A stretch of DNA of 33,240 nucleotides, from assembly GCA_027249445.1 (NCBI GenBank), contig JAPNTN010000129.1, positions 1-33,240 on the forward strand, written 5' to 3'. This DNA comes from Dehalococcoidia bacterium (GTDB taxonomy: Bacteria; Chloroflexota; Dehalococcoidia; Lucifugimonadales; UBA3495). A program made the position numbers and the translations under genes. A model generated the notes under the pieces. That model did no database searches. It saw only the letters and a program-made list of their open reading frames with translations, and was not told the DNA's origin. This document shows, one piece after another, positions 1,912 through 26,302 of the stretch (the stretch's first letter is position 1; each line of letters opens with the position of its first letter).

Positions 1912-3369
1912 TTATTGTCGTTGCCACTTTAAGTCAGGTCTTCTAGCGGCTTGTGCTTCGTCTAAACGCGACACCGGTGTTGTGTGAGGCGCATTTTGCA
2001 CTGTTTCAGGCTGGTCGTGTGATTCTTGGTCTATTTGGACAAGAGCGTCAATGAATGCGTCTAACGTCTCTTTTGTTTCAGACTCAGTTGGTTCTATCAT
2101 TAATGCTTCGTGGACTATTAGCGGGAAATACATTGTTGGAGCATGATATCCATAGTCAAGAAGTCTTTTCGCAACTTCCAGTCCGCTGACACCTCGTTCC
2201 TTTTGCCAATCAGCTGAAAATACAACCTCATGCATGCATCGTCTATCGTAAGGTAAGAAATATTTATCCTTTAAAGATTCCATAATGTAATTTGCATTTA
2301 GAACAGCATTTCCGCTGATCGATCTTAACCCTTCAGCACCAAGTGTTCTTATGTAAGTATATGCTCTAACAAGAACCCCGAAATTGCCGTGAAAGCCGCT
2401 AATTTTCCCAATGCTTCCTTCTGGTGTGAAAAGCTCGAAGGAATCTCCGGATTTAGTGATTAACGGTGATGCAAGAAATGGAGTCAATGACTCTACGCAG
2501 CACACTGGACCTGCTCCGGGCCCGCCTCCACCGTGAGGAGTACTAAATGTTTTATGGAGGTTGAGGTGTGCAACATCGAAACCGAGTTCTCCGAGTTTAG
2601 CTCTGCCGAGAAGGGCATTCATGTTGGCTCCATCCCCGTATACCATTCCTCCTGCCTCATGAACGATCCTGCATACTTCTACAATGTTTTCATCGAATAT
2701 ACCAAGGGTGCTCGGCAGTGTGATCATTGCCCCTGCAAGATCAGGCCCGGCAAGGCCTCTCAATTGCTCTATATCAACATTACCATTCGCGTCGGATGGC
2801 AATGTCACTACATCGAATCCCGCCATTGCTGCAGAAGCTGGATTAGTTCCGTGGGCGCTATCAGGTATGGCCATTTTGGTACGCCCGAGATCATTTCTAG
2901 AATGATGATATGCCCGGATCATTAACACACCAGCCAGTTCCCCGTGTGCTCCTGCTAATGTTGCAAGACTGACACCATTCATTCCTGTAATTTCGGCTAA
3001 GAATTCTTGTAGTCTATGTAGAAGTTCCAATGCTCCTTGAGATGACTCAGCAGGTTGTAATGGGTGTATATTGGCAAATCCTGGCAAAAATGCCATTTCA
3101 TCGTTTACTTTTGGGTTGTATTTCATTGTGCAGCTACCTAGTGGGTAAAACTGCGTGTCTATAGAAAAATTCAGTTGGCTGAGATTGGTAAAGTATTGAA
3201 CGACTTCAGGTTCCGATATTTCTGGTAATTCTAGATTGGATCGCAGTAAATTAGGATTGAGTTGAGTTTGCTCTGGAACATCAAGGGCAGGCGTTACTAC
3301 TCCTGACCTCCCTCGTACGCTACGGTCCATCAATAATTTTTCTGTAGTGCGATTTCCACCTTTGATCAT
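1912..3369 (-). CDS. gcvPB: Glycine dehydrogenase (decarboxylating) subunit 2, GCS P-protein beta
   Basis: FYPLGSCTMKYNPK, SAHGTNPASA, PLP-lysine motif HLNLHKTFSTPHGGGGPG, MIEPTESE. Confidence 0.96.
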   Translation of the reverse strand: MIKGGNRTTEKLLMDRSVRGRSGVVTPALDVPEQTQLNPNLLRSNLELPEISEPEVVQYFTNLSQLNFSIDTQFYPLGSCTMKYNPKVNDEMAFLPGFANIHPLQPAESSQGALELLHRLQEFLAEITGMNGVSLATLAGAHGELAGVLMIRAYHHSRNDLGRTKMAIPDSAHGTNPASAAMAGFDVVTLPSDANGNVDIEQLRGLAGPDLAGAMITLPSTLGIFDENIVEVCRIVHEAGGMVYGDGANMNALLGRAKLGELGFDVAHLNLHKTFSTPHGGGGPGAGPVCCVESLTPFLASPLITKSGDSFELFTPEGSIGKISGFHGNFGVLVRAYTYIRTLGAEGLRSISGNAVLNANYIMESLKDKYFLPYDRRCMHEVVFSADWQKERGVSGLEVAKRLLDYGYHAPTMYFPLIVHEALMIEPTESETKETLDAFIDALVQIDQESHDQPETVQNAPHTTPVSRLDEAQAARRPDLKWQRQ

Positions 3370-3370
3370 G

Positions 3371-4723
3371 CTATTTTATCTCACTTAACGTAGATATTAG
3401 AGAATCAATGTCTTGACGGCTGTTAAGTTCGGTCACGCACATCAACATGCCATTGACGACATTTTCAGGTGAAGACTTGGAGAATGGTGGATTTGATAAG
3501 TCTAAGCCACCAAGGATGTTCTGACTTATTAGTATTCGATTGACATCTGCCGCCGGGATAGGGCAGTCGATTATGAATTCGTGGAAAAAAGGATTTGGAG
3601 CTACTATTTTATATCCAGCGATTTTTGATATCTCATTCGCGGCGTAGTGTGCCTTGTGGTAGCACAATTCTGATATCTGGCGCAGCCCGTTCTTACCCAT
3701 AGCGGATAAATATATGGTGGAGGCCAGTGCGTATAGCGCCTCGTTAGTACATATGTTACTAGTGGCACGCTCTCTACGGATGTGCTGTTCTCTCGTTTGA
3801 AGGGTTAGAACGTATCCGTTTTTTCCGTTAGTGTCTACGGTTCTTCCTACTATACGGCTTGGCATTTGTCTAATGTATTCTTGTTTGGTGGCAAATAGTC
3901 CTAGATAGGGACCGCCGTAACTTGTTGGGATGCCAAGCGGTTGCCCTTCACCTGTAACTATATCAGCTCCGTACTCCCCTGGGCTTTTAAGCATGCCCAT
4001 CGCTAGTGGATTGGTTGATACTACTAGGAGTGCACCGCAGTTGTGCGCTTTAGCGGAATATCCTGATATGTCTTCAATTCCACCGATAAAATTTGGGTAT
4101 TGGGATACTACACAAGCAGTTTTTTCTGACGGTGAAAGGGTGCTGGCGGAATCGGTGGTTATGTCGATACCCTGTGCCTGGCAATATGTGTGTATTACCT
4201 GCTGGTATAAGGGGGAAACACTATCGAGTATTATCACCTCATCACGTTTTGTTACCCTACAAGCCATGAGGACTCCCTCGGCTAAGCTGGTTGCTCCGTC
4301 GTACATACCTGCGTTCGCTACTTCCATGTCATAGAGGTTTGCGATAAGGCTTTGGAATTCGTAGATTACTTGTAATGTGCCTTGGCTTACCTCTGGCTGG
4401 TAAGGGGTATAGGCAGTCAGGAACTCTCCCCTGGTCATTAGCGATTTGACAATAGCGGGGATGAAATGGTTGTAGGAGCCTGCTCCCAGAAATGATGGCC
4501 CGCTGCTGAGAACGCGATTGTTGCTCGCGAATGTGGAGAGTTCTTTTTGTATTTCTATCTCTGAGATAGGGGAGGGAAGGTTCAAAACTGGGTTTCGGAA
4601 TGTGTCTGGTATATCTTGAAATAATTCGTCGACGGAATGCAGATTTAAGGTAGCGAGCATCGCTTCCTGTTCTTCCGGGGTGTTGGGTATGTAATGGGAT
4701 TGAAAATGACCCTGATTGGTCAC
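3371..4723 (-). CDS. gcvPA: Glycine dehydrogenase (decarboxylating) subunit 1, GCS P-protein alpha
   Basis: FLGAG-x-Y-x-H, EFLTAYTPYQPEVSQGTLQ, REQHIRRERATSNICTN; GTG start. Confidence 0.96.
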   Translation of the reverse strand: MTNQGHFQSHYIPNTPEEQEAMLATLNLHSVDELFQDIPDTFRNPVLNLPSPISEIEIQKELSTFASNNRVLSSGPSFLGAGSYNHFIPAIVKSLMTRGEFLTAYTPYQPEVSQGTLQVIYEFQSLIANLYDMEVANAGMYDGATSLAEGVLMACRVTKRDEVIILDSVSPLYQQVIHTYCQAQGIDITTDSASTLSPSEKTACVVSQYPNFIGGIEDISGYSAKAHNCGALLVVSTNPLAMGMLKSPGEYGADIVTGEGQPLGIPTSYGGPYLGLFATKQEYIRQMPSRIVGRTVDTNGKNGYVLTLQTREQHIRRERATSNICTNEALYALASTIYLSAMGKNGLRQISELCYHKAHYAANEISKIAGYKIVAPNPFFHEFIIDCPIPAADVNRILISQNILGGLDLSNPPFSKSSPENVVNGMLMCVTELNSRQDIDSLISTLSEIK

Positions 4724-4782
4724 GAGTTTTTGGCTCCTTGGATAGTACCTAGCTACTACTCATAATAGCATGGCTTGCTTGG

Positions 4783-5178
4783 TTATGCTTGTTCCGTAAA
4801 CGATTGATATTCATCTGCCGATATTAGAGAGCTGAGTTCTCCGGTATCGCTCAAAATGACCTGCAATATCCACCCTTCATTGTACGGGTCTTCGTTGATT
4901 AATTCTGGTCGGTCCAGAAGTTCACTGTTTGTTTTTATGACCTCTCCGCTTACTGGAGAGAATAAGTCTGATACTGCCTTAACTGATTCAATCTCTCCCA
5001 TTTTCTCCATATGCACCAAATTTGAGCCTATCTCTGGCATATCTATGAATACCACGTCACCGAGTTGTTCTTGAGCGTAGTCTGTTATACCTACTATTGC
5101 TAAGTTACTCTCAGCGTCTTGTATTTTGAGCCATTCGTGTTCTTTAGTATATTGGCGATCCGATGGATTCAATGTCAT
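4783..5178 (-). CDS. gcvH: Glycine cleavage system H protein (lipoyl carrier)
   Basis: EHEW, GITDYAQEQLGDVVF, lipoyl-Lys motif ESVKA, INEDPY-x-x-GW; 4-nt overlap with gcvT stop. Confidence 0.96.
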   Translation of the reverse strand: MTLNPSDRQYTKEHEWLKIQDAESNLAIVGITDYAQEQLGDVVFIDMPEIGSNLVHMEKMGEIESVKAVSDLFSPVSGEVIKTNSELLDRPELINEDPYNEGWILQVILSDTGELSSLISADEYQSFTEQA

Positions 5179-6278
5179 GGCCTCCTAGGGCGTGAGTAAA
5201 ATGGGAGTTGAGCTAATTCTGCTTTTATTAATTTGCCTCTGATGTCTATTTCCAAGGCGTCAGATTGCTGAGCGTGCTGATCCAAAACGTAGCCCATCGC
5301 AATGCTTGTGTCAAGAGTGGGGGAATAGCTTCCGCTAGTAATATATCCGATCTGTTCCCCGTTTCGGAGAATAGGGTATTCTGCTCTAGGTGCGCTTCTA
5401 CCTGGCACCTTTAGACCGACTAGGGACATCTCAGTTCCTTTGTCTAATTGATGGTAGATTACTTCAGACCCAATAAAGTTGCCGGACTTTCTAACAAATC
5501 TTGAAAGGCCAGCTTCGATCGGGGTCTTGTTAATGTTGATTTCATGTCCGTGCAGGGGTAGGGCAGCTTCTAATCTGAGGACGTCTCTCGCTCCCAATCC
5601 ACAAGGGGTTGCGCCTGCTTCCGTCAAGCTACTCCAAACATTTACCGCATGTTCTGAATCGACCACTATTTCAAAACCGTCCTCGCCCGTATATCCTGTT
5701 CTGCCCATCATAACCTTATGGTCTTGTAATATACCGTTAGCCCAGCTGAATCCTCTTATGGATGAGGGGAGTGCCCCGTTGTCAACAATACATATTTGAT
5801 CCAATATAGTACTGCTCTGTGGTCCTTGTATGGCTATCAGGCTAGTTTTGAATGTTTGGTCGTCTAAACTACATTTCCCTGTAAAGTTATTGTCTATCCA
5901 GGATTGCAGCCAATTTATTATTTGGACACGGTTCCCTGCATTAGGGATTAACAAATAACGGGTCTCTGCGAGGCGGTAAAAGATTGTGTCATCGATTATT
6001 CCTCCAGATTCGTCGCAGATCATGCAATATCTGGCTCTTCCTATTTTGAGAGTGCTAGCTGGGGATGTGAGGACTAAATCCAGTAGATCAGTTGCAGAGT
6101 CCCCCTCGATATATAATCTGCCCATGTGAGATACATCAAACAATCCAGATTTTGTTCTAACTGCGGCCACTTCAGATATTATTCCAGCGTATTGTACTGG
6201 CATATCCCATCCGCCAAAGGGCACCATTCGTGCTCCAGACTCGGTATGTATTTGGTGGAGTACCGTTTTTAGATCCAT
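5175..6278 (-). CDS. gcvT: Glycine cleavage system aminomethyltransferase T
   Basis: [41 protein letters not shown]; start placed at ATG 6278 (ORF track extends to 6299). Confidence 0.95.
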
Positions 6279-6455
6279 ATGTTTATGTTTCTCATTCAAA
6301 ATAAAAGGGGTATTCAGTTAGTATCCTACCATCGTGTGGTAGCTATATCCACTAGGTAGTAGATACTCCCAGTATTCATGATCTACATCCTATTTGACCA
6401 GATGTGGTATATTTGCCACATTGACGGTAATTCGCTGGAACATAGGTTATTAATT

Positions 6456-7775
6456 ATGCGAATACTTCTGATAGCAACGAATCGCCACAACAGATGGATG
6501 ACAAAGGACGAAGTTCGTCCCTTGCCGATTGGCCTCGCGTATGTGGCAGCTTACATAAATCCCGATAGGCATTCCGTGCGTATCTTGGATCTGATGTTCT
6601 CTGAGGACCATATATCTGATACAGAACAGGCTGTAAAAGAATACAGGCCAGACATAGTAGGGATCTCATTACGTAACTTGGATAATGGTAGCTTTACTAA
6701 TCCTCAATCAGCTCTATCTACGACAAGGGATGTTATACAGGCAATTCGAAAGAACAGTAGTGCTCTAGTAACTTGCGGTGGGCCTGCCTTCAGTATTTTG
6801 CCAGAAGATTGTTTTAATTATTTGGAGACGGATGTCGGGTTAGTAGGGGACTCAGCTGAATGTTTTGCGGATTTGGCTGATCTAATGGACGATGGAAAGT
6901 CCTGGAGAGACCTGCCGGGGATAATGTTCAAAGATGGAGGAGTACTTAAGATAGCTGAAGAAAAGGCTTCTTCAGCGTTGTCTAAGCCTCCCAGATTTGA
7001 CGATTTAGATCTCTCTCAATATAGATCAGCTGGGTTTGGTGTTGGAATAATTACTAAATTAGGCTGGTACTCTTCTACCGTAGCTAGTCCGAGTTCTGAT
7101 GACGAATGGAGAATCGTGCGTCCTGTTGAGGACGTAATTGGAGAGATAGGCCGCCTTAAAGATGAATATGATTTAAATGAATTTTTCTTTATTGACCAAG
7201 AATTCAACAGGCCTATAGATTATGCTAAGCAGTTGTGTAGTGCCATATGCGATATGCGATTGGATATAAAGTGGAATACTAATATTACTCCATCATCCTA
7301 TGATGATGAGCTTATGTCATTGTTAACTGCGGCCGGATGCCAAATGGTACTTATAGGCGGTGGTTCTATCAAAGGAAATGTAATGCCAGGTGACACAGGC
7401 GAAGAACATATGCGACTTGGCACTGACCTTTCAGACCTTCAGAAGTTATGCGAAATGTGTCAAAAACATGCACTGCCGTATTCGATTACCCAAGGCTTTG
7501 GAGAGATAGGAGAAACGGATCAAACAGTGCGTGATAAATTGGCGTTCTTATCTACGGCTACGAGCAATGGCAGGTCTAGTGTTGTCACTTTACGAGTGGG
7601 TACTAGATTATATCCTGGAACTGAATTAGCGGCTCGAGCTGCTAACGAGGGTATCATAAATTGTGAATCCGAATTGTTAATGCCAGTCTTTTATGTATCT
7701 CAGCCTGTGAGAAACACTTTAATAGGCACATTAGAGGAAGCAATTGCCGGTCATCCGACCTGGACCATACTTTAG
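6456..7775 (+). CDS. Cobalamin-binding domain / radical-SAM-fold protein lacking the CxxxCxxC motif
   Basis: B12-binding Rossmann motifs PIGLAYVAA, PDIVGISLRNLD, GGPAFS; radical SAM barrel motifs RPVEDVIGEI, FFFIDQEFN, GET, RLYPGTEL; TKLG-WYSSTVAS where TKRG-CxxxCxxC is expected. Start taken at MRILL (6456) rather than 6378. Confidence 0.8.
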   Translation: MRILLIATNRHNRWMTKDEVRPLPIGLAYVAAYINPDRHSVRILDLMFSEDHISDTEQAVKEYRPDIVGISLRNLDNGSFTNPQSALSTTRDVIQAIRKNSSALVTCGGPAFSILPEDCFNYLETDVGLVGDSAECFADLADLMDDGKSWRDLPGIMFKDGGVLKIAEEKASSALSKPPRFDDLDLSQYRSAGFGVGIITKLGWYSSTVASPSSDDEWRIVRPVEDVIGEIGRLKDEYDLNEFFFIDQEFNRPIDYAKQLCSAICDMRLDIKWNTNITPSSYDDELMSLLTAAGCQMVLIGGGSIKGNVMPGDTGEEHMRLGTDLSDLQKLCEMCQKHALPYSITQGFGEIGETDQTVRDKLAFLSTATSNGRSSVVTLRVGTRLYPGTELAARAANEGIINCESELLMPVFYVSQPVRNTLIGTLEEAIAGHPTWTIL

Positions 7776-7913
7776 TGAGCGATATTTTTCATACTCTGAG
7801 TCATTCTATTCTTCGGATTAGATACTAAGTATTACGAATAGGACTATGCTAACCTTCTAATAAAGCTTTAATTCGTAAAAATATCATATATTTTCCGCAA
7901 TTTTTTTTACATC

Positions 7914-7942
7914 TTGGGTATCACGCAACTATGTTGTATAAT
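7914..7942 (+). promoter_or_regulatory. Putative sigma70-type promoter of the zinc-ribbon gene
   Basis: TTGGGT (7914-7919), 17-nt spacer, perfect TATAAT (7937-7942). Confidence 0.55.
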
Positions 7943-8056
7943 GCCATGTGTAAACAGGCTTGGTACAGGGTACTTTCCAGTTGTTAGTATGTGAATCGGC
8001 AGACTTAGCGCAGGATGACCTCAACTGAGCTAGACAATATCATCGGAGGTCTTGAC

Positions 8057-8344
8057 TTGGCACTTTCAGACAAAACTTTAACCTGTGCGGATTGTGGGGC
8101 GTCGTTTATTTTCACGGTAGGTGAGCAGGAATTCTTCAACTCAAGAGGTTTCACTAACGAGCCTCGACGTTGCCCTGAGTGCCGCCAGCAGCGGCGAGGA
8201 CAGCGAGGCGGGGGATTTGGTCAGCCTAGGGAAATGCACCCAGCGGTTTGTGCGCAGTGCGGAGTGGATACTATGGTTCCATTCCTTCCTAGAGGTGATC
8301 GTCCAGTATATTGCAGTGACTGCTTCAGCTCTATGCGTAACTAG
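8057..8344 (+). CDS. Zinc-ribbon protein (zf-trcl-like N domain plus CxxC-x17-CxxC C domain), probably nucleic-acid binding
   Basis: DKTLTCADCG..FTVGEQEFF..RGF.NEPRRCPECR; REMHPAVCAQCG...VPF.PRGDRPVYCSDCF; TTG start at 8057 with GGAGG at 8045-8049. Confidence 0.88.
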   Translation: MALSDKTLTCADCGASFIFTVGEQEFFNSRGFTNEPRRCPECRQQRRGQRGGGFGQPREMHPAVCAQCGVDTMVPFLPRGDRPVYCSDCFSSMRN

Positions 8345-8401: not shown

Positions 8402-8446
8402 AAATGATAAGGCCCCCGACAAACATTGTCGGGGGCCTTATCATTT
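8402..8446. terminator. Perfect 21-bp inverted repeat, probable intrinsic terminator
   Basis: AAATGATAAGGCCCCCGACAA-ACA-TTGTCGGGGGCCTTATCATTT downstream of the zinc-ribbon gene. Confidence 0.7.
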
Positions 8447-8476
8447 GTTCATCTCGACAAGAGTAGGATTAAGCAT

Positions 8477-9640
8477 ATGAAGAAGACAGCAGATGCGGTA
8501 GTAATTGGGGGAGGGGTCATTGGATGCAGTATTCTATATCACCTTTGTGTACAGAATATGAATAATGTGATTCTCTTGGAAAAAGACGTATTGGGTTCAG
8601 GATCTACTGGAAGGTCTCAAACTATCTGTAGAACCCATTATTCCAACGAAATTACGTCTATCATGGCGAGGGACAGCCTTAATATATTCAATAATTTTTC
8701 AGAGATAGTGGGGGGGCAATCTGGTTTTGTAAATACAGGATACATAGTGGTTGTCAACCAATCTGACACGGATGGACTGAGAAACAATCTTAGAATGCAA
8801 CAGAATCTGGGCATCAATACCTCTGAAATAGATTCAGCCCAGCTGCGTGATATCGCGCCAATGATTCGTACGACTGGAGATGAACTGTTGGCATGGGAAC
8901 CGGATTCAGGATACGCGGACTCGTATCAGGTCACGACTTCATTTGCAAATAGAGCCCGTGATATGGGTGCAGATATTCACCTGCGCAACCCGGTGACTGG
9001 AATAGAGATAGAAAACGGAGCGGTTAAGTCAGTTACTACACCTGACGGTACGATAGCAACGCGCAAAGTCATTATTTGTTCTGGGCCTTGGTCTAAAGAG
9101 ATCATGAATTCTGTTAGAGTTGAAGTACCTTTATCCACAGTTAGGCATCAAATAGCTACGATCGTACGGCCGGCCGATAAGATACCGGATCATCCAATAA
9201 TTGGAGATATAGCCCAGTCTTTCTCTCTGAGACCAGAAGGTACATCGATGACGTTGGTTGGATTCGGTGAGGATGAAGCCAAAGTTGATTCCTATAACGA
9301 AGGAGTAGACCTAGATGATATTCCTTTGGTTTTGAGTAGGTTGATTAATAGAATGCCTGATATGGACCAGGCATATTTTAGAGGTGGGTGGTCAGGATTA
9401 TTTACGATTACTCCCGACTGGCATCCTATTCTTGATGAAATTCCAGGGGTTGAAGGTTTATATTGTGCCGTGGGATTTAGTGGTCACGGATTTAAGCTAG
9501 CTCCATCGATTGGTGAAGTAATATCAAAGTTGGTGGTGGGTGACGAGATATCTAATGTGGATATTAGTCAGCTTAGATTTACGAGATTCGAACAAAATGA
9601 TGTATTAACATCCAGTTATCATTACAACGTTTTGGCGTAG
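8477..9640 (+). CDS. FAD-dependent oxidoreductase, DAO / sarcosine oxidase beta-like family
   Basis: VVIGGGVIG FAD motif, GSGSTGRS, TPDWHPIL, GFSGHGFKLAP; start at ATG 8477 (the 8426 start lies inside the hairpin). Confidence 0.88.
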   Translation: MKKTADAVVIGGGVIGCSILYHLCVQNMNNVILLEKDVLGSGSTGRSQTICRTHYSNEITSIMARDSLNIFNNFSEIVGGQSGFVNTGYIVVVNQSDTDGLRNNLRMQQNLGINTSEIDSAQLRDIAPMIRTTGDELLAWEPDSGYADSYQVTTSFANRARDMGADIHLRNPVTGIEIENGAVKSVTTPDGTIATRKVIICSGPWSKEIMNSVRVEVPLSTVRHQIATIVRPADKIPDHPIIGDIAQSFSLRPEGTSMTLVGFGEDEAKVDSYNEGVDLDDIPLVLSRLINRMPDMDQAYFRGGWSGLFTITPDWHPILDEIPGVEGLYCAVGFSGHGFKLAPSIGEVISKLVVGDEISNVDISQLRFTRFEQNDVLTSSYHYNVLA

Positions 9641-13796: not shown

Positions 13797-13818
13797 GACC
13801 CTATTAGGCTTGAGTAGG

Positions 13819-14727
13819 ATGAAAATAGCGTTAATAGCCTTATTCCTAGTAGGTTATAGCTTGTTTGCAGTGGCTTGTATCTCGGCTACGCCAACTGGTA
13901 TGACCATCGCAGCGGATAAATATAGCGCGGTAATGGTTACAAGTGATCTCTCGGTCGGAACGAATAGGGTCAGCTTCGGACTAGTGGACATGGAAGGTCA
14001 GCCCATTCAGTCTGATTCAGTGGATGTTACATCTGTATACTTTCCTCCTGAGGAAGAAAAAGGGATTTTAAAAGAGGAAGTTACGGCACGGTTTGTTCAT
14101 TGGCCACCATACGACGGTAGTAAGGGAGTATTTGTTACCGAACTTTATTTCGATGTAAAGGGTCCGGCTACAATTACGGACCCGGGACTTTGGGGAATTG
14201 AGATTAGCGCTATAACTAAAGATGGAACGCAGGTAGAAGCGCGAACAGTTCTAACGGTCAACGAGTTTTCGAAAACACCTGCTATTGGGGACATAGCTCC
14301 TGCTAGTAGTACGCCAACTTTAATGGATGTTAGTGATCTAGGACATATTACTAGTGATGTGGACCCTGATCCTGATCTTTATCAAGTGTCTATTGATGAC
14401 GCGATTGTTGACGATAAGGCTCTGGTTCTTATTTTCTCTACCCCTGCATTTTGTGTTAGCGCTACATGTGGCCCGCAACTAGAAATTATTAAAAACATAA
14501 AAACGCGTTACATGGGCGTCAATTTTATCCACGTGGAGGCATTCCAAGATCCACACCTGATTAAAGAGGGAATAATTAGCTTGGAACCGGTGCGCACAAT
14601 GGATGAATGGGGCCTTACAACGGAGCCCTGGACATTTGTTGTTGATTCTGATGGACGAGTGCGCGCCAAGTTTGAACAATTTGTTACCGAGGACGAAATA
14701 GTAATTGCCCTAGAAGAAGCTCTATAG
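13819..14727 (+). CDS. Putative lipoprotein with C-terminal thioredoxin-like domain (Cx4C)
   Basis: Signal peptide with lipobox-like AVAC; FSTPAFCVSATCGP, NFIHVE, WGLTTEPWTFVVD-x-x-G-x-V-x-AKFE resembling a Trx fold; ATG 13819. Confidence 0.65.
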   Translation: MKIALIALFLVGYSLFAVACISATPTGMTIAADKYSAVMVTSDLSVGTNRVSFGLVDMEGQPIQSDSVDVTSVYFPPEEEKGILKEEVTARFVHWPPYDGSKGVFVTELYFDVKGPATITDPGLWGIEISAITKDGTQVEARTVLTVNEFSKTPAIGDIAPASSTPTLMDVSDLGHITSDVDPDPDLYQVSIDDAIVDDKALVLIFSTPAFCVSATCGPQLEIIKNIKTRYMGVNFIHVEAFQDPHLIKEGIISLEPVRTMDEWGLTTEPWTFVVDSDGRVRAKFEQFVTEDEIVIALEEAL

Positions 14728-14744: not shown

Positions 14745-15074
14745 TCAATCTTCCAATGTGATAGCTACTAATATCCCATCCCTAGAAATGAATCTTACAA
14801 GCAGAGTTTGTCCGAATAATTGATGTTCTTTTATGTGACCAGGAGTGAAGCCGGTGAATGTATCACTGGTAAATTGATAAAGTTGCCCGTCCTCTGCTCG
14901 AACTTTTAATGTTTCAAATTCTGACACGTTTTTGGGAACGATTTCTAGAACATGTCCTCTGATTTCCATGATGCTTTGGTCATGATTATCGAGGTCAGTG
15001 GGGTTACATGACGCTGTCATAATTAACATTAGTATAGCGATCATCAATGCGCTGAACGACAATGACTTGTTCAT
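14745..15074 (-). CDS. Small putative lipoprotein, beta-rich, with H-x3-H motif
   Basis: Signal peptide with lipobox TASC; alternating beta-strand pattern; FTPGHIKEH; 10 nt downstream of the ABC permease on the same strand. Confidence 0.65.
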   Translation of the reverse strand: MNKSLSFSALMIAILMLIMTASCNPTDLDNHDQSIMEIRGHVLEIVPKNVSEFETLKVRAEDGQLYQFTSDTFTGFTPGHIKEHQLFGQTLLVRFISRDGILVAITLED

Positions 15075-26059: not shown

Positions 26060-26135
26060 GGGGATATAGCTCAATTGGGAGAGCGCGGCGTTCGCAATGC
26101 CGAGGTTGGGGGTTCGAGCCCCCCTATCTCCACCA
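26060..26135 (+). tRNA. tRNA-Ala(CGC)
   Basis: Acceptor GGGGATA/TATCTCC with G3:U70, discriminator A, encoded CCA; anticodon arm CGGCG-TTCGCAA-TGCCG; GTTCGAG T-loop. Confidence 0.96.
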
Positions 26136-26138
26136 TGT

Positions 26139-26214
26139 GCCCCTGTAGCTCAGGGGATAGAGCGGCGGCGTCCTAAGTCGCGCGTCGGGGGTTCGAGTCC
26201 CTCCAGGGGTACCA
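26139..26214 (+). tRNA. tRNA-Arg(CCT)
   Basis: Acceptor GCCCCTG/CAGGGGT, encoded CCA; D-loop AGGGGATA; anticodon arm GCGGC-GTCCTAA-GTCGC; GTTCGAG T-loop. Confidence 0.93.
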
Positions 26215-26224
26215 TTAAAAATGT

Positions 26225-26302
26225 AGGAGCGTAGCTCAGTTTGGCCAGAGCGCTGGTCTCCAAAACCAGTGGTCGGGGGTTCGAATCCTCCCGCTCCTGC
26301 CA
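26225..26302 (+). tRNA. tRNA-Trp(CCA)
   Basis: Acceptor AGGAGCG/CGCTCCT, discriminator G, encoded CCA; anticodon arm CTGGT-CTCCAAA-ACCAG; GTTCGAAT. Confidence 0.96.

Follow-up and report, generated by a model that had tools for sequence, protein, structure and literature searches.

What becomes of a class B radical S-adenosylmethionine (SAM) protein when the ligands of its iron-sulfur cluster are gone? Enzymes of this cobalamin-dependent class need a CxxxCxxC motif to bind the [4Fe-4S] cluster that cleaves SAM. The question is raised by a gene of a Dehalococcoidia bacterium (assembly GCA_027249445.1, contig JAPNTN010000129.1), located in the stretch of 33,240 nucleotides that was analysed here and is called the window (Table 1). 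An initial annotation had noticed that the gene lacks all three cluster cysteines while the motifs of the B12-binding domain, those of the barrel and the reading frame are intact, and had proposed that the product is a repurposed protein. The analysis described below points to a family that appears to descend from class B radical SAM enzymes, to have given up radical SAM chemistry altogether and to carry out, probably, a different B12-dependent reaction in marine Chloroflexi.

The frame from 6456 to 7775 on the plus strand contains no internal stop and is translated into 439 amino acids. Immediately after ITKLG it reads W204-YSS-T208-VA-S211, and a family profile aligned with TsrM (tryptophan 2-C-methyltransferase, PDB 6wte) places W204-S211 opposite LTKNG-C-AYR-C-SH-C, which is the register that had been proposed. 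A MAFFT alignment moves the loop by two residues and supplies no cysteine in either register. As encoded, the protein is unable to bind a radical SAM cluster through the canonical ligands. A longer frame in the list of open reading frames (ORFs) opens at 6378; 6456 is the likelier start because the homologues begin with MRILLIATNR and because a contig from an RNA library begins at 6447. The in-frame N-terminal extension of 26 codons (6378-6455), which lies outside that contig, is open in the close relatives L002, L003 and L013 and missing from most homologues.

The two domains are recognized to a different extent. The B12-binding domain scores 54.6 bits with Pfam PF02310 (cut-off 32.1, E 1e-14), in agreement with the conserved Rossmann motifs that were noticed initially. 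The flanking barrel motifs TKxG, FFID..FN and GFGE.GET are also kept, but the Radical_SAM model PF04055 gives 16.9 bits, below its cut-off of 29.5, and two SAM-contact positions have changed. The barrel is not among the PF04055 matches of the genome at E<=0.001. The best NCBIfam models are TIGR04072 (188.6 bits, cut-off 360), BzaD TIGR04385 (111.9, cut-off 450) and TsrM TIGR04428 (104.7, cut-off 500). None of the 14 nearest relatives in an NCBIfam scan reaches a curated cut-off; since these include the nine nearest cysteine-bearing proteins, the wider neighbourhood is itself uncharacterized.

Is the loss peculiar to this copy? A word-indexed search yielded 647 homologues at E<=0.001, the best 120 of which are 44-98% identical and nearly all 425-470 amino acids long. 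Those with a name are called 'cobalamin-dependent protein' by NCBI and belong to metagenome-assembled genomes (MAGs) of Chloroflexota, Dehalococcoidia, Tectomicrobia and Planctomyces. CxxxCxxC occurs in none of 26 aligned homologues (44-87% identity), in which 77 columns are invariant. An exhaustive search of representative sequences gave 8,727 matches at E<=0.001; the 150 best include the full-length Cys-less proteins P0059, P0122, P0125, P0126, P0127 and P0138, and the closest cysteine-bearing one among them, P0124, is 36% identical. A maximum-likelihood tree was built from 81 sequences, comprising 12 hand-picked family members and 69 representatives of at least 400 amino acids (P0122-P0199 and P0059). 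In this tree, a single clade with a support of 99 (Shimodaira-Hasegawa-like approximate likelihood ratio test, SH-aLRT) unites 17 of the 18 Cys-less sequences; its sister is a cysteine-bearing group of six (SH-aLRT 91). The remaining one, the metagenome representative P0138, falls outside the clade; it keeps C-x3-C, has lost the third cysteine (GCPFECLWDD) and lacks the acid of the ribose motif. It may represent a separate, partial and possibly independent loss, or an error, as it is a singleton cluster.

Relatives of the protein are encoded at 237 loci in public genomes. Among the 80 loci retained for analysis, 79 have titles that name Dehalococcoidia, Chloroflexota or SAR202 MAGs and one that of an 'uncultured bacterium'; in several genomes there are two paralogues, such as L013 and L069 or L014 and L070. 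Nei-Gojobori dN/dS values for the three pairs among the window's gene, L002 and L003 are 0.088 (window and L002), 0.078 (window and L003) and 0.072 (L002 and L003), at dS values of 0.78-1.15 that are near saturation in two of the pairs. The Cys-less clade is a conserved family under purifying selection. Decay into a pseudogene, which the initial annotation had expected to show in close homologues with an intact motif and in relaxed selection, was rejected: the homologues, too, are devoid of CxxxCxxC, they form one clade, and dN/dS is 0.07-0.09. The same observations bear out the idea of a repurposed protein. Even the former loop is conserved within each of two subfamilies, as GWYSST in that of the window and as GDF(Y/S)YP in the larger one. 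Names of sequence clusters and the ESM Atlas offer 'B12-binding domain' labels without a function. In the light of the present results, the labels 'B12-binding domain-containing radical SAM protein' and 'radical SAM superfamily enzyme YgiQ', which some members bear, are wrong.

Which of the two cofactor sites has been kept? The columns of 123 Cys-less and 126 CxxxCxxC homologues of 400-560 amino acids were compared in one MAFFT alignment, with the reservation that the Cys-less set consists mostly of close kin and its counts are not independent events. Positions were mapped onto TsrM by profile alignment, and the roles of the TsrM residues were taken from passages of PMC9204698. In the Cys-less proteins, G69, R73, G108, G109 and G131 are present in 123/123 and S71 in 122/123. 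Because all cobalamin motifs are invariant, the protein likely binds cobalamin. R73, which is just as invariant in the cysteine-bearing relatives (126/126), aligns with Arg69 of TsrM, a non-coordinating lower-axial residue. According to passages of PMC8992657, PMC13331322 and PMC9204698, this arginine is located 3.4 Å beneath the cobalt but does not coordinate it; it keeps a lower ligand away, stabilizes cob(I) and weakens the methyl-cobalt bond.

The SAM and cluster site has fared differently. No cysteine is found anywhere in the aligned region 196-222 in 122 of the 123 Cys-less homologues. The acid of the ribose motif at position 303 (Asp335 in TsrM) is D or E in 1/123 Cys-less versus 122/126 cysteine-bearing proteins. 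Hydrophobic residues of the GxIxGxxE motif have become equally rare, at position 346 (4/123 versus 119/126) as well as at position 347 (Leu379 in TsrM; 6/123 versus 123/126), and so has the arginine or lysine that precedes the first cysteine at position 202 (1/123 versus 108/126). Two of the four canonical SAM contacts, the ribose acid and the adenine hydrophobics, are missing throughout the clade. E249, the equivalent of Glu273 in TsrM, is variable and mostly replaced by G or A, and the equivalents of E236 and K240 in the cysteine loop of TsrM and of its K346 are situated in variable stretches.

In place of these residues the clade has conserved features of its own. L202, N274, G302, Q346, E350 and K361 are rare or absent in cysteine-bearing proteins, and a GFG insertion (193-195), the cysteines C107, C119 and C332, and H11, R13 and R21 on the 'His loop' of the Rossmann domain are further clade-specific features. 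The distal cysteines, which had been put forward as alternative metal ligands, seem to be mostly inherited and not new ligands: C261, C295 and C335 are also frequent in the cysteine-bearing relatives (98, 88 and 53 of 126), and among the distal cysteines only C332 is specific to the clade. In the predicted structure they are in helices or at the start of a strand, away from the top of the barrel.

An AlphaFold2 model was computed from the 26-sequence alignment, with a mean predicted local distance difference test (pLDDT) score of 82.6 and a predicted template modelling score of 0.81. Residues 14-17 and 75-81 (pLDDT <50) and the region around 200-220 (block means 60-62) are modelled with low confidence, and these are the parts expected to contact the cofactors. 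Four TsrM chains head the Foldseek matches in the PDB (E 1e-24, template modelling (TM) score 0.73-0.77), followed by AprD4, MgmA, OxsB, TokK and CysS, in line with the barrel fold that was initially assumed. By the DSSP assignment of the model, L202, N274, G302, Q346 and E350 are at or just past the C-terminal ends of barrel strands 1, 3, 4 and 5. This would put them at the site that accommodates the cluster and SAM in radical SAM enzymes. As an observation apart, the clade-specific His11, Arg13, Met15 and Arg21 (residues H11-R21, 6486-6518) are on a loop that matches the 'His loop' of MetH. With a confidence below 50 in this loop, a contact of His11 with the cobalt is only a candidate.

How does the family relate to known enzymes? 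Of the class B hallmarks it possesses the N-terminal B12 Rossmann domain with the cobalamin and GG motifs and the partial (beta/alpha)6 barrel fold; CxxxCxxC, the SAM motifs, a PF04055 score at the gathering cut-off and scores at the NCBIfam thresholds are lacking. It would work most like TsrM and is most aptly regarded as an offshoot of the class B group that has lost the cluster. The second-best solved match is AprD4 (PDB 6fd2; sequence E 5e-13, fold E 8e-17), a diol dehydratase of the radical SAM type whose N-terminal domain is B12-like. AprD4 is a class-B-like protein that has dispensed with one of the two cofactors; it retains the cluster and SAM and is not known to use cobalamin. The Cys-less family would be the reverse, with the cobalamin motifs retained and the cluster and SAM contacts lost. 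Corrinoid methyltransferases, such as the MetH modules and MtaBC/MtgBC-type systems, are comparable merely by analogy, through the combination of a B12 Rossmann domain and a TIM-type barrel. In these enzymes the barrel presents the methyl donor or acceptor, and the transfer step takes place without an Fe-S cluster. No sequence or fold match to them was found in Pfam, NCBIfam, the PDB sequences or among the Foldseek matches listed. MetH binds cobalamin His-on through DxHxxG, a motif described in passages of PMC9204698, whereas the Cys-less family has the G-x-S-x-R arrangement of class B.

The best solved match is TsrM itself (PDB 6wte/6wtf; TIGR04428), with a sequence E of 9e-32, a fold E of 1e-24 and a TM score of 0.76. 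Both proteins share the two-domain layout, a G-x-S/T-x-R motif with the arginine under the cobalt, and the GG motif. According to passages of PMC8992657, methyl transfer by TsrM is polar and non-radical, which makes this enzyme the precedent for such chemistry on the scaffold. TsrM keeps CxxxCxxC, a [4Fe-4S] cluster capped by Glu273, the ribose Asp335, Leu379 in GxIxGxxE and Lys346 (passages of PMC9204698). In the Cys-less family, all three cysteines are missing, the equivalent of Glu273 is variable and those of Asp335 and Leu379 are lost; furthermore, the C-terminus of TsrM is about 130 amino acids longer. As a member of the TsrM family proper, the protein would have only the Arg69 equivalent to show, as it reaches 104.7 of the 500 bits for TIGR04428 and has neither cluster cysteines nor a conserved Glu273. 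The proteins near TIGR04072 and BzaD have a similar length (about 420-450 amino acids), and the nearest cysteine-bearing representatives are 30-36% identical over the full length. They differ in possessing CxxxCxxC, R202, the ribose D/E and the hydrophobic residues of GxIxGxxE.

The reading that we favour, with a probability of roughly 0.4, is that of an Fe-S-free cobalamin enzyme with heterolytic, methyl-transfer-type chemistry and without canonical SAM binding. Cobalamin would be bound base-off/His-off with Arg73 beneath the cobalt, which could cycle between Co(I) and methyl-Co(III) and act in a nucleophilic, heterolytic manner on a small molecule. This cycle is favoured because the polypeptide has no radical initiator and such a cobalt site by itself supports it. 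The substrate and a methyl partner would be held at a rebuilt barrel top by L202, N274, G302, Q346 and E350, and the methyl donor or acceptor would either be held unlike canonical SAM or not be SAM at all.

The surroundings of the gene give some clues as to the substrate. ORFs were called in 75 loci (the window and 74 of the 80) and the neighbours were clustered; L005, L026, L028, L032, L054 and L060 were dropped, their target ORF being unmatched by the motif filter. The window's subfamily (at least 54% identity) comprises 15 loci, two of them from one MAG, and the other subfamily 60. In the former, the steadiest neighbour is a gene for an oxidase of the DAO family, downstream on the same strand in 14/15 loci, whose nearest models are N-methyl-L-tryptophan oxidase and sarcosine oxidases, all below cut-off. 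In the window, the gene is indeed head-to-head with the minus-strand genes gcvT, gcvH and gcvPA/PB (GcvT scores 404 bits, cut-off 300). A gcvT gene lies within four genes in 8/15 loci of this subfamily; in seven of these it is upstream and divergently oriented, and in L008 it follows downstream in the same orientation. In the other subfamily, gcvT is near the gene in 0/60 loci and the DAO cluster occurs once. The link to one-carbon metabolism that had been read from the head-to-head arrangement therefore recurs in one subfamily and fails in the other, a hint and not a rule. With the DAO gene conserved downstream and gcv genes often nearby, there is a weak indication that the window's subfamily acts on an N-methylated amine or amino acid.

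Table 1. Features of the window around the Cys-less gene, with positions counted from the first nucleotide of the window
Feature	Position	Strand	Basis or remarks
Cys-less cobalamin-binding protein gene, putative class B radical SAM ancestry (P0001)	6456..7775	+	439 codons + stop
B12-binding Rossmann domain, residues 24-140	6525..6875	+	Pfam PF02310
Downstream cobalamin-binding motif G69-I-S71-L-R73-N74	6660..6677	+	TsrM alignment; R73 opposite TsrM Arg69
GG motif G108-G109, forms pocket for the cobalamin tail	6777..6782	+	Invariance; motif definition from passages of PMC9204698
Partial (beta/alpha)6 barrel, radical SAM type, about residues 190-400	7023..7655	+	AlphaFold2 secondary structure, Foldseek, TsrM alignment
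Former cluster loop W204-S211 (WYSSTVAS) instead of CxxxCxxC	7065..7088	+	Translation and alignments
G303, site of the SAM ribose-motif acid (TsrM Asp335)	7362..7364	+	TsrM alignment, column counts
Q346-G-F-G-E350-I-G-E353, remodelled GxIxGxxE region	7491..7514	+	Alignment; hydrophobic adenine contacts replaced
Divergent glycine cleavage genes	1912..6299	-	gcvT 5175-6299, gcvH 4783-5178, gcvPA 3371-4723, gcvPB 1912-3369
Small protein gene, zf_Tbcl / CxxC-x17-CxxC, downstream	8015..8344	+	In 6/15 loci of the window's subfamily
FAD amine-oxidase-like gene, DAO family, downstream	8426..9640	+	In 14/15 loci of the window's subfamily

Taking all 75 loci together, family III CoA-transferase genes are found in 25 (mostly as two tandem genes), thiolase-like genes in 19, ChsH2-type OB genes in 11 and DUF1385 genes in 29. 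No gene accompanies the family throughout. The neighbours of the larger subfamily are mixed and include amidohydrolase, P450, gamma-glutamyltranspeptidase, GMC oxidoreductase, MFS, hydrolase and DUF1385/L21/L27 genes. In one layout that recurs there (L019, L025, L029, L031, L035, L057, L068 and others), the upstream side is occupied by a divergent tandem of family III CoA-transferase genes, and a thiolase-like gene and a DUF35/ChsH2 OB gene follow downstream. It resembles Bbs-type CoA-transferase/thiolase gene sets; the NCBIfam BbsB-like model gives 121 bits, below cut-off.

At E<=1e-60 a match to the protein is present in 7/7 other genomes of the window's own family, in 24/201 genomes of the order sample and in 4/301 genomes of the class sample. 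Fixation of the gene in some lineages therefore contrasts with the lack of a match in most of the others sampled. The window's genome (1.82 Mb, 74% complete) contains five B12-binding domains and six Radical_SAM matches. From the former it can be concluded that the organism uses B12, and from the presence of genes for cytochrome oxidase and haem A that it is an aerobe.

Several points weigh against the favoured reading. Cobalamin binding is itself deduced from motifs, and the placement at the barrel top from the DSSP strand ends of the model alone. Because R73 belongs to a cobalamin site retained from cysteine-bearing relatives, it would not by itself point to polar chemistry. D247, E353 and the beta6 arginine R384 (106/123) are kept by the Cys-less homologues, so that a non-canonical pose of SAM may be conceivable, and the kinship within the set that was compared, mentioned above, has to be borne in mind. 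The neighbourhoods differ between the subfamilies and are heterogeneous inside the larger one, and they contain no corrinoid reductive activase, no second methyltransferase and no dedicated partner. Furthermore, orthologues of the DAO gene occur in 100/201 genomes of the order versus 24/201 for the Cys-less protein; the two are therefore not co-distributed, and no dependence follows.

Could SAM still be the methyl donor? A cluster-free methylase resembling TsrM, in which SAM in a non-canonical pose methylates cob(I)alamin and methyl-cobalamin then methylates a nucleophile in a polar reaction, would account for TsrM being the nearest solved relative by sequence and fold and for the retention of D247, E353 and R384. 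Moreover, the cluster of TsrM is not used for radical generation (passages of PMC8992657), and class B enzymes can hold SAM in a second pose for cobalamin methylation, as described for OxsB and CysS in passages of PMC9204698 and PMC12846815. The residues that hold SAM in this pose were not found in the passages of the CysS paper (PMC12846815) that were searched. The loss of the ribose acid (1/123 versus 122/126) and of both adenine-contact hydrophobics makes such a methylase unlikely. In addition, E236, K240 and K346, which link SAM and cobalamin in TsrM, have their equivalents in variable stretches, and E249 is not conserved. The same clade-wide losses weaken the initial suggestion of a cobalamin/SAM methyl carrier. 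A radical enzyme dependent on adenosylcobalamin (AdoCbl), akin to a mutase or eliminase, with the adenosyl group of the cofactor in the former SAM pocket, must be judged still less probable. Its layout of barrel plus Rossmann domain would be that of the AdoCbl isomerases, the lost SAM contacts would fit an altered adenosyl pocket, and in an aerobic organism it would replace an oxygen-sensitive SAM/[4Fe-4S] generator. In the larger subfamily the gene is often flanked by two family III CoA-transferase genes on one side and a thiolase-like/DUF35 pair on the other, which evokes acyl-CoA metabolism, the territory of AdoCbl mutases; of all 75 loci, 25 have the CoA-transferase and 19 the thiolase-like gene. 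CoA-transferase III paralogues are presumably very numerous in these genomes, however, and the adjacency may be due to chance. Nor is an AdoCbl mutase found among the two PDB sequence matches or the Foldseek matches listed, DxHxxG is missing, and neither an adenosyltransferase nor a MeaB-type chaperone gene occurs in the neighbourhoods. That oxygen forced the loss is contradicted by the retention of at least six Fe-S radical SAM domains in this genome. Finally, a non-coordinating arginine under the cobalt has been described for Co(I)/methyl chemistry (passages of PMC8992657 and PMC13331322).

Alternatively, the protein might have no catalytic role. A binder of cobalamin that serves in storage or trafficking, as a chaperone or as a sensor, with the barrel as a scaffold, would be in keeping with the disappearance of the ancestor's catalytic machinery, the lack of a conserved operon partner, the plain NCBI name 'cobalamin-dependent protein' and a patchy, accessory-like distribution (24/201 order and 4/301 class genomes). 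It is nevertheless as unlikely as the TsrM-like methylase: the barrel matches the B12 domain in conservation and has many invariant residues, its new polar residues at strand ends suggest a ligand or active site, dN/dS is 0.07-0.09 across the whole gene, and there is no DNA-binding or signalling domain, unlike in a B12-plus-helix-turn-helix protein of the same genome. That other protein, encoded on contig C49 (L084:1095-1973), is an ORF of 292 amino acids with a B12-binding domain and a C-terminus that is helix-turn-helix-like by eye; it may be a B12-responsive regulator. Very improbable, lastly, is an inactive pseudoenzyme that serves as partner of a canonical class B radical SAM enzyme, as the initial annotation had also considered. 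The genome does hold such a canonical B12-radical SAM protein (contig C44, RGCTENCSYC), and both proteins are present in 8/8 sampled genomes of the window's family. Their genes are, however, on separate contigs and never adjacent in the 75 loci, no partner gene is conserved, and a C44-type enzyme, found in 36/201 genomes of the order, overlaps with the Cys-less protein in only 10 genomes; it has a match in 10/24 Cys-less carriers, and 26/36 C44-type genomes are without the Cys-less protein. The C44 gene (1575-3365, 596 amino acids) is directly followed by a beta-ketoacyl-synthase-like gene (3393-4640), and the two could be a lipid-modifying pair.

Beyond the favoured Fe-S-free methyl-transfer chemistry, a bolder proposal can be made, which we regard as tentative and rather doubtful. 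The family could be a SAM-independent, Fe-S-free offshoot of class B that arose once, spread in aerobic marine Chloroflexota and constitutes a new class of cobalamin enzymes, having converged with corrinoid methyltransferases or AdoCbl isomerases on a design of barrel plus B12 domain. One form of this proposal would be a single-chain demethylase of N-methylated amines, supplying both glycine cleavage and the amine oxidase encoded nearby; the other, a radical enzyme in which SAM/[4Fe-4S] has been swapped for adenosylcobalamin. Members of the Cys-less family are also labelled Methylomirabilota, Tectomicrobia and Planctomycetes.

In the literature covered by our searches, outside of which many subscription papers and supplements lie, neither class B homologues without the cysteines nor a SAR202 version of this protein were the subject of any paper found, and proteins of this kind go unmentioned in the passages searched in the recent reviews PMC12931638 and PMC13331322. 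The joint action of two cofactors is what defines class B radical SAM enzymes. If a large clade that is under selection and apparently transcribed has kept the cobalamin half and rebuilt the SAM/cluster half, the scaffold would support cluster-free B12 chemistry, one step past the precedent of TsrM. The annotation of members that are now called radical SAM proteins is affected as well. The carriers are uncultured marine Dehalococcoidia and bacteria of the SAR202 type, which have been discussed as degraders of refractory organic matter, and a new B12 reaction in them would have consequences for the demand for B12 in the sea and for the catabolism of one-carbon or acyl-CoA compounds. With about 430 amino acids in a single chain and no oxygen-labile cluster expected, the protein is also a suitable target for experiments.

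Is the gene expressed? Marine metagenome assemblies from several studies contain the stretch, as do six runs that are registered as RNA. Four RNA runs, which belong to three studies, were compared with the window, with the caveat that such libraries may carry DNA and that the contigs are strandless. In X15 a contig covers 6447-7866 with one mismatch; gcvT (5519-6293) and the zinc-finger gene (7970-8295) are covered by separate contigs. X16 contains pieces covering 6491-6963 and 7509-7721, and X18 one covering 6496-6907; the three runs represent the three studies. Since the contigs break between genes, the transcript might be monocistronic, but this hint is weak. The zf_Tbcl gene (8015-8344) has the deepest contigs in the RNA libraries that were compared, with a depth of 57 in X15. 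A scan of the region 6200-8100 gave 9 promoter-like sites versus 5.7 +/- 2.4 in shuffled sequences, and no terminator.

An Rfam scan of the whole window revealed no cobalamin, glycine or SAM riboswitch; its only matches are three tandem tRNA genes at 26060-26299. Two further ORFs, at 13810-14727 (305 amino acids) and 14745-15074 (109 amino acids), have no Pfam match at E<=1e-5, and the first is also without an NCBIfam match.

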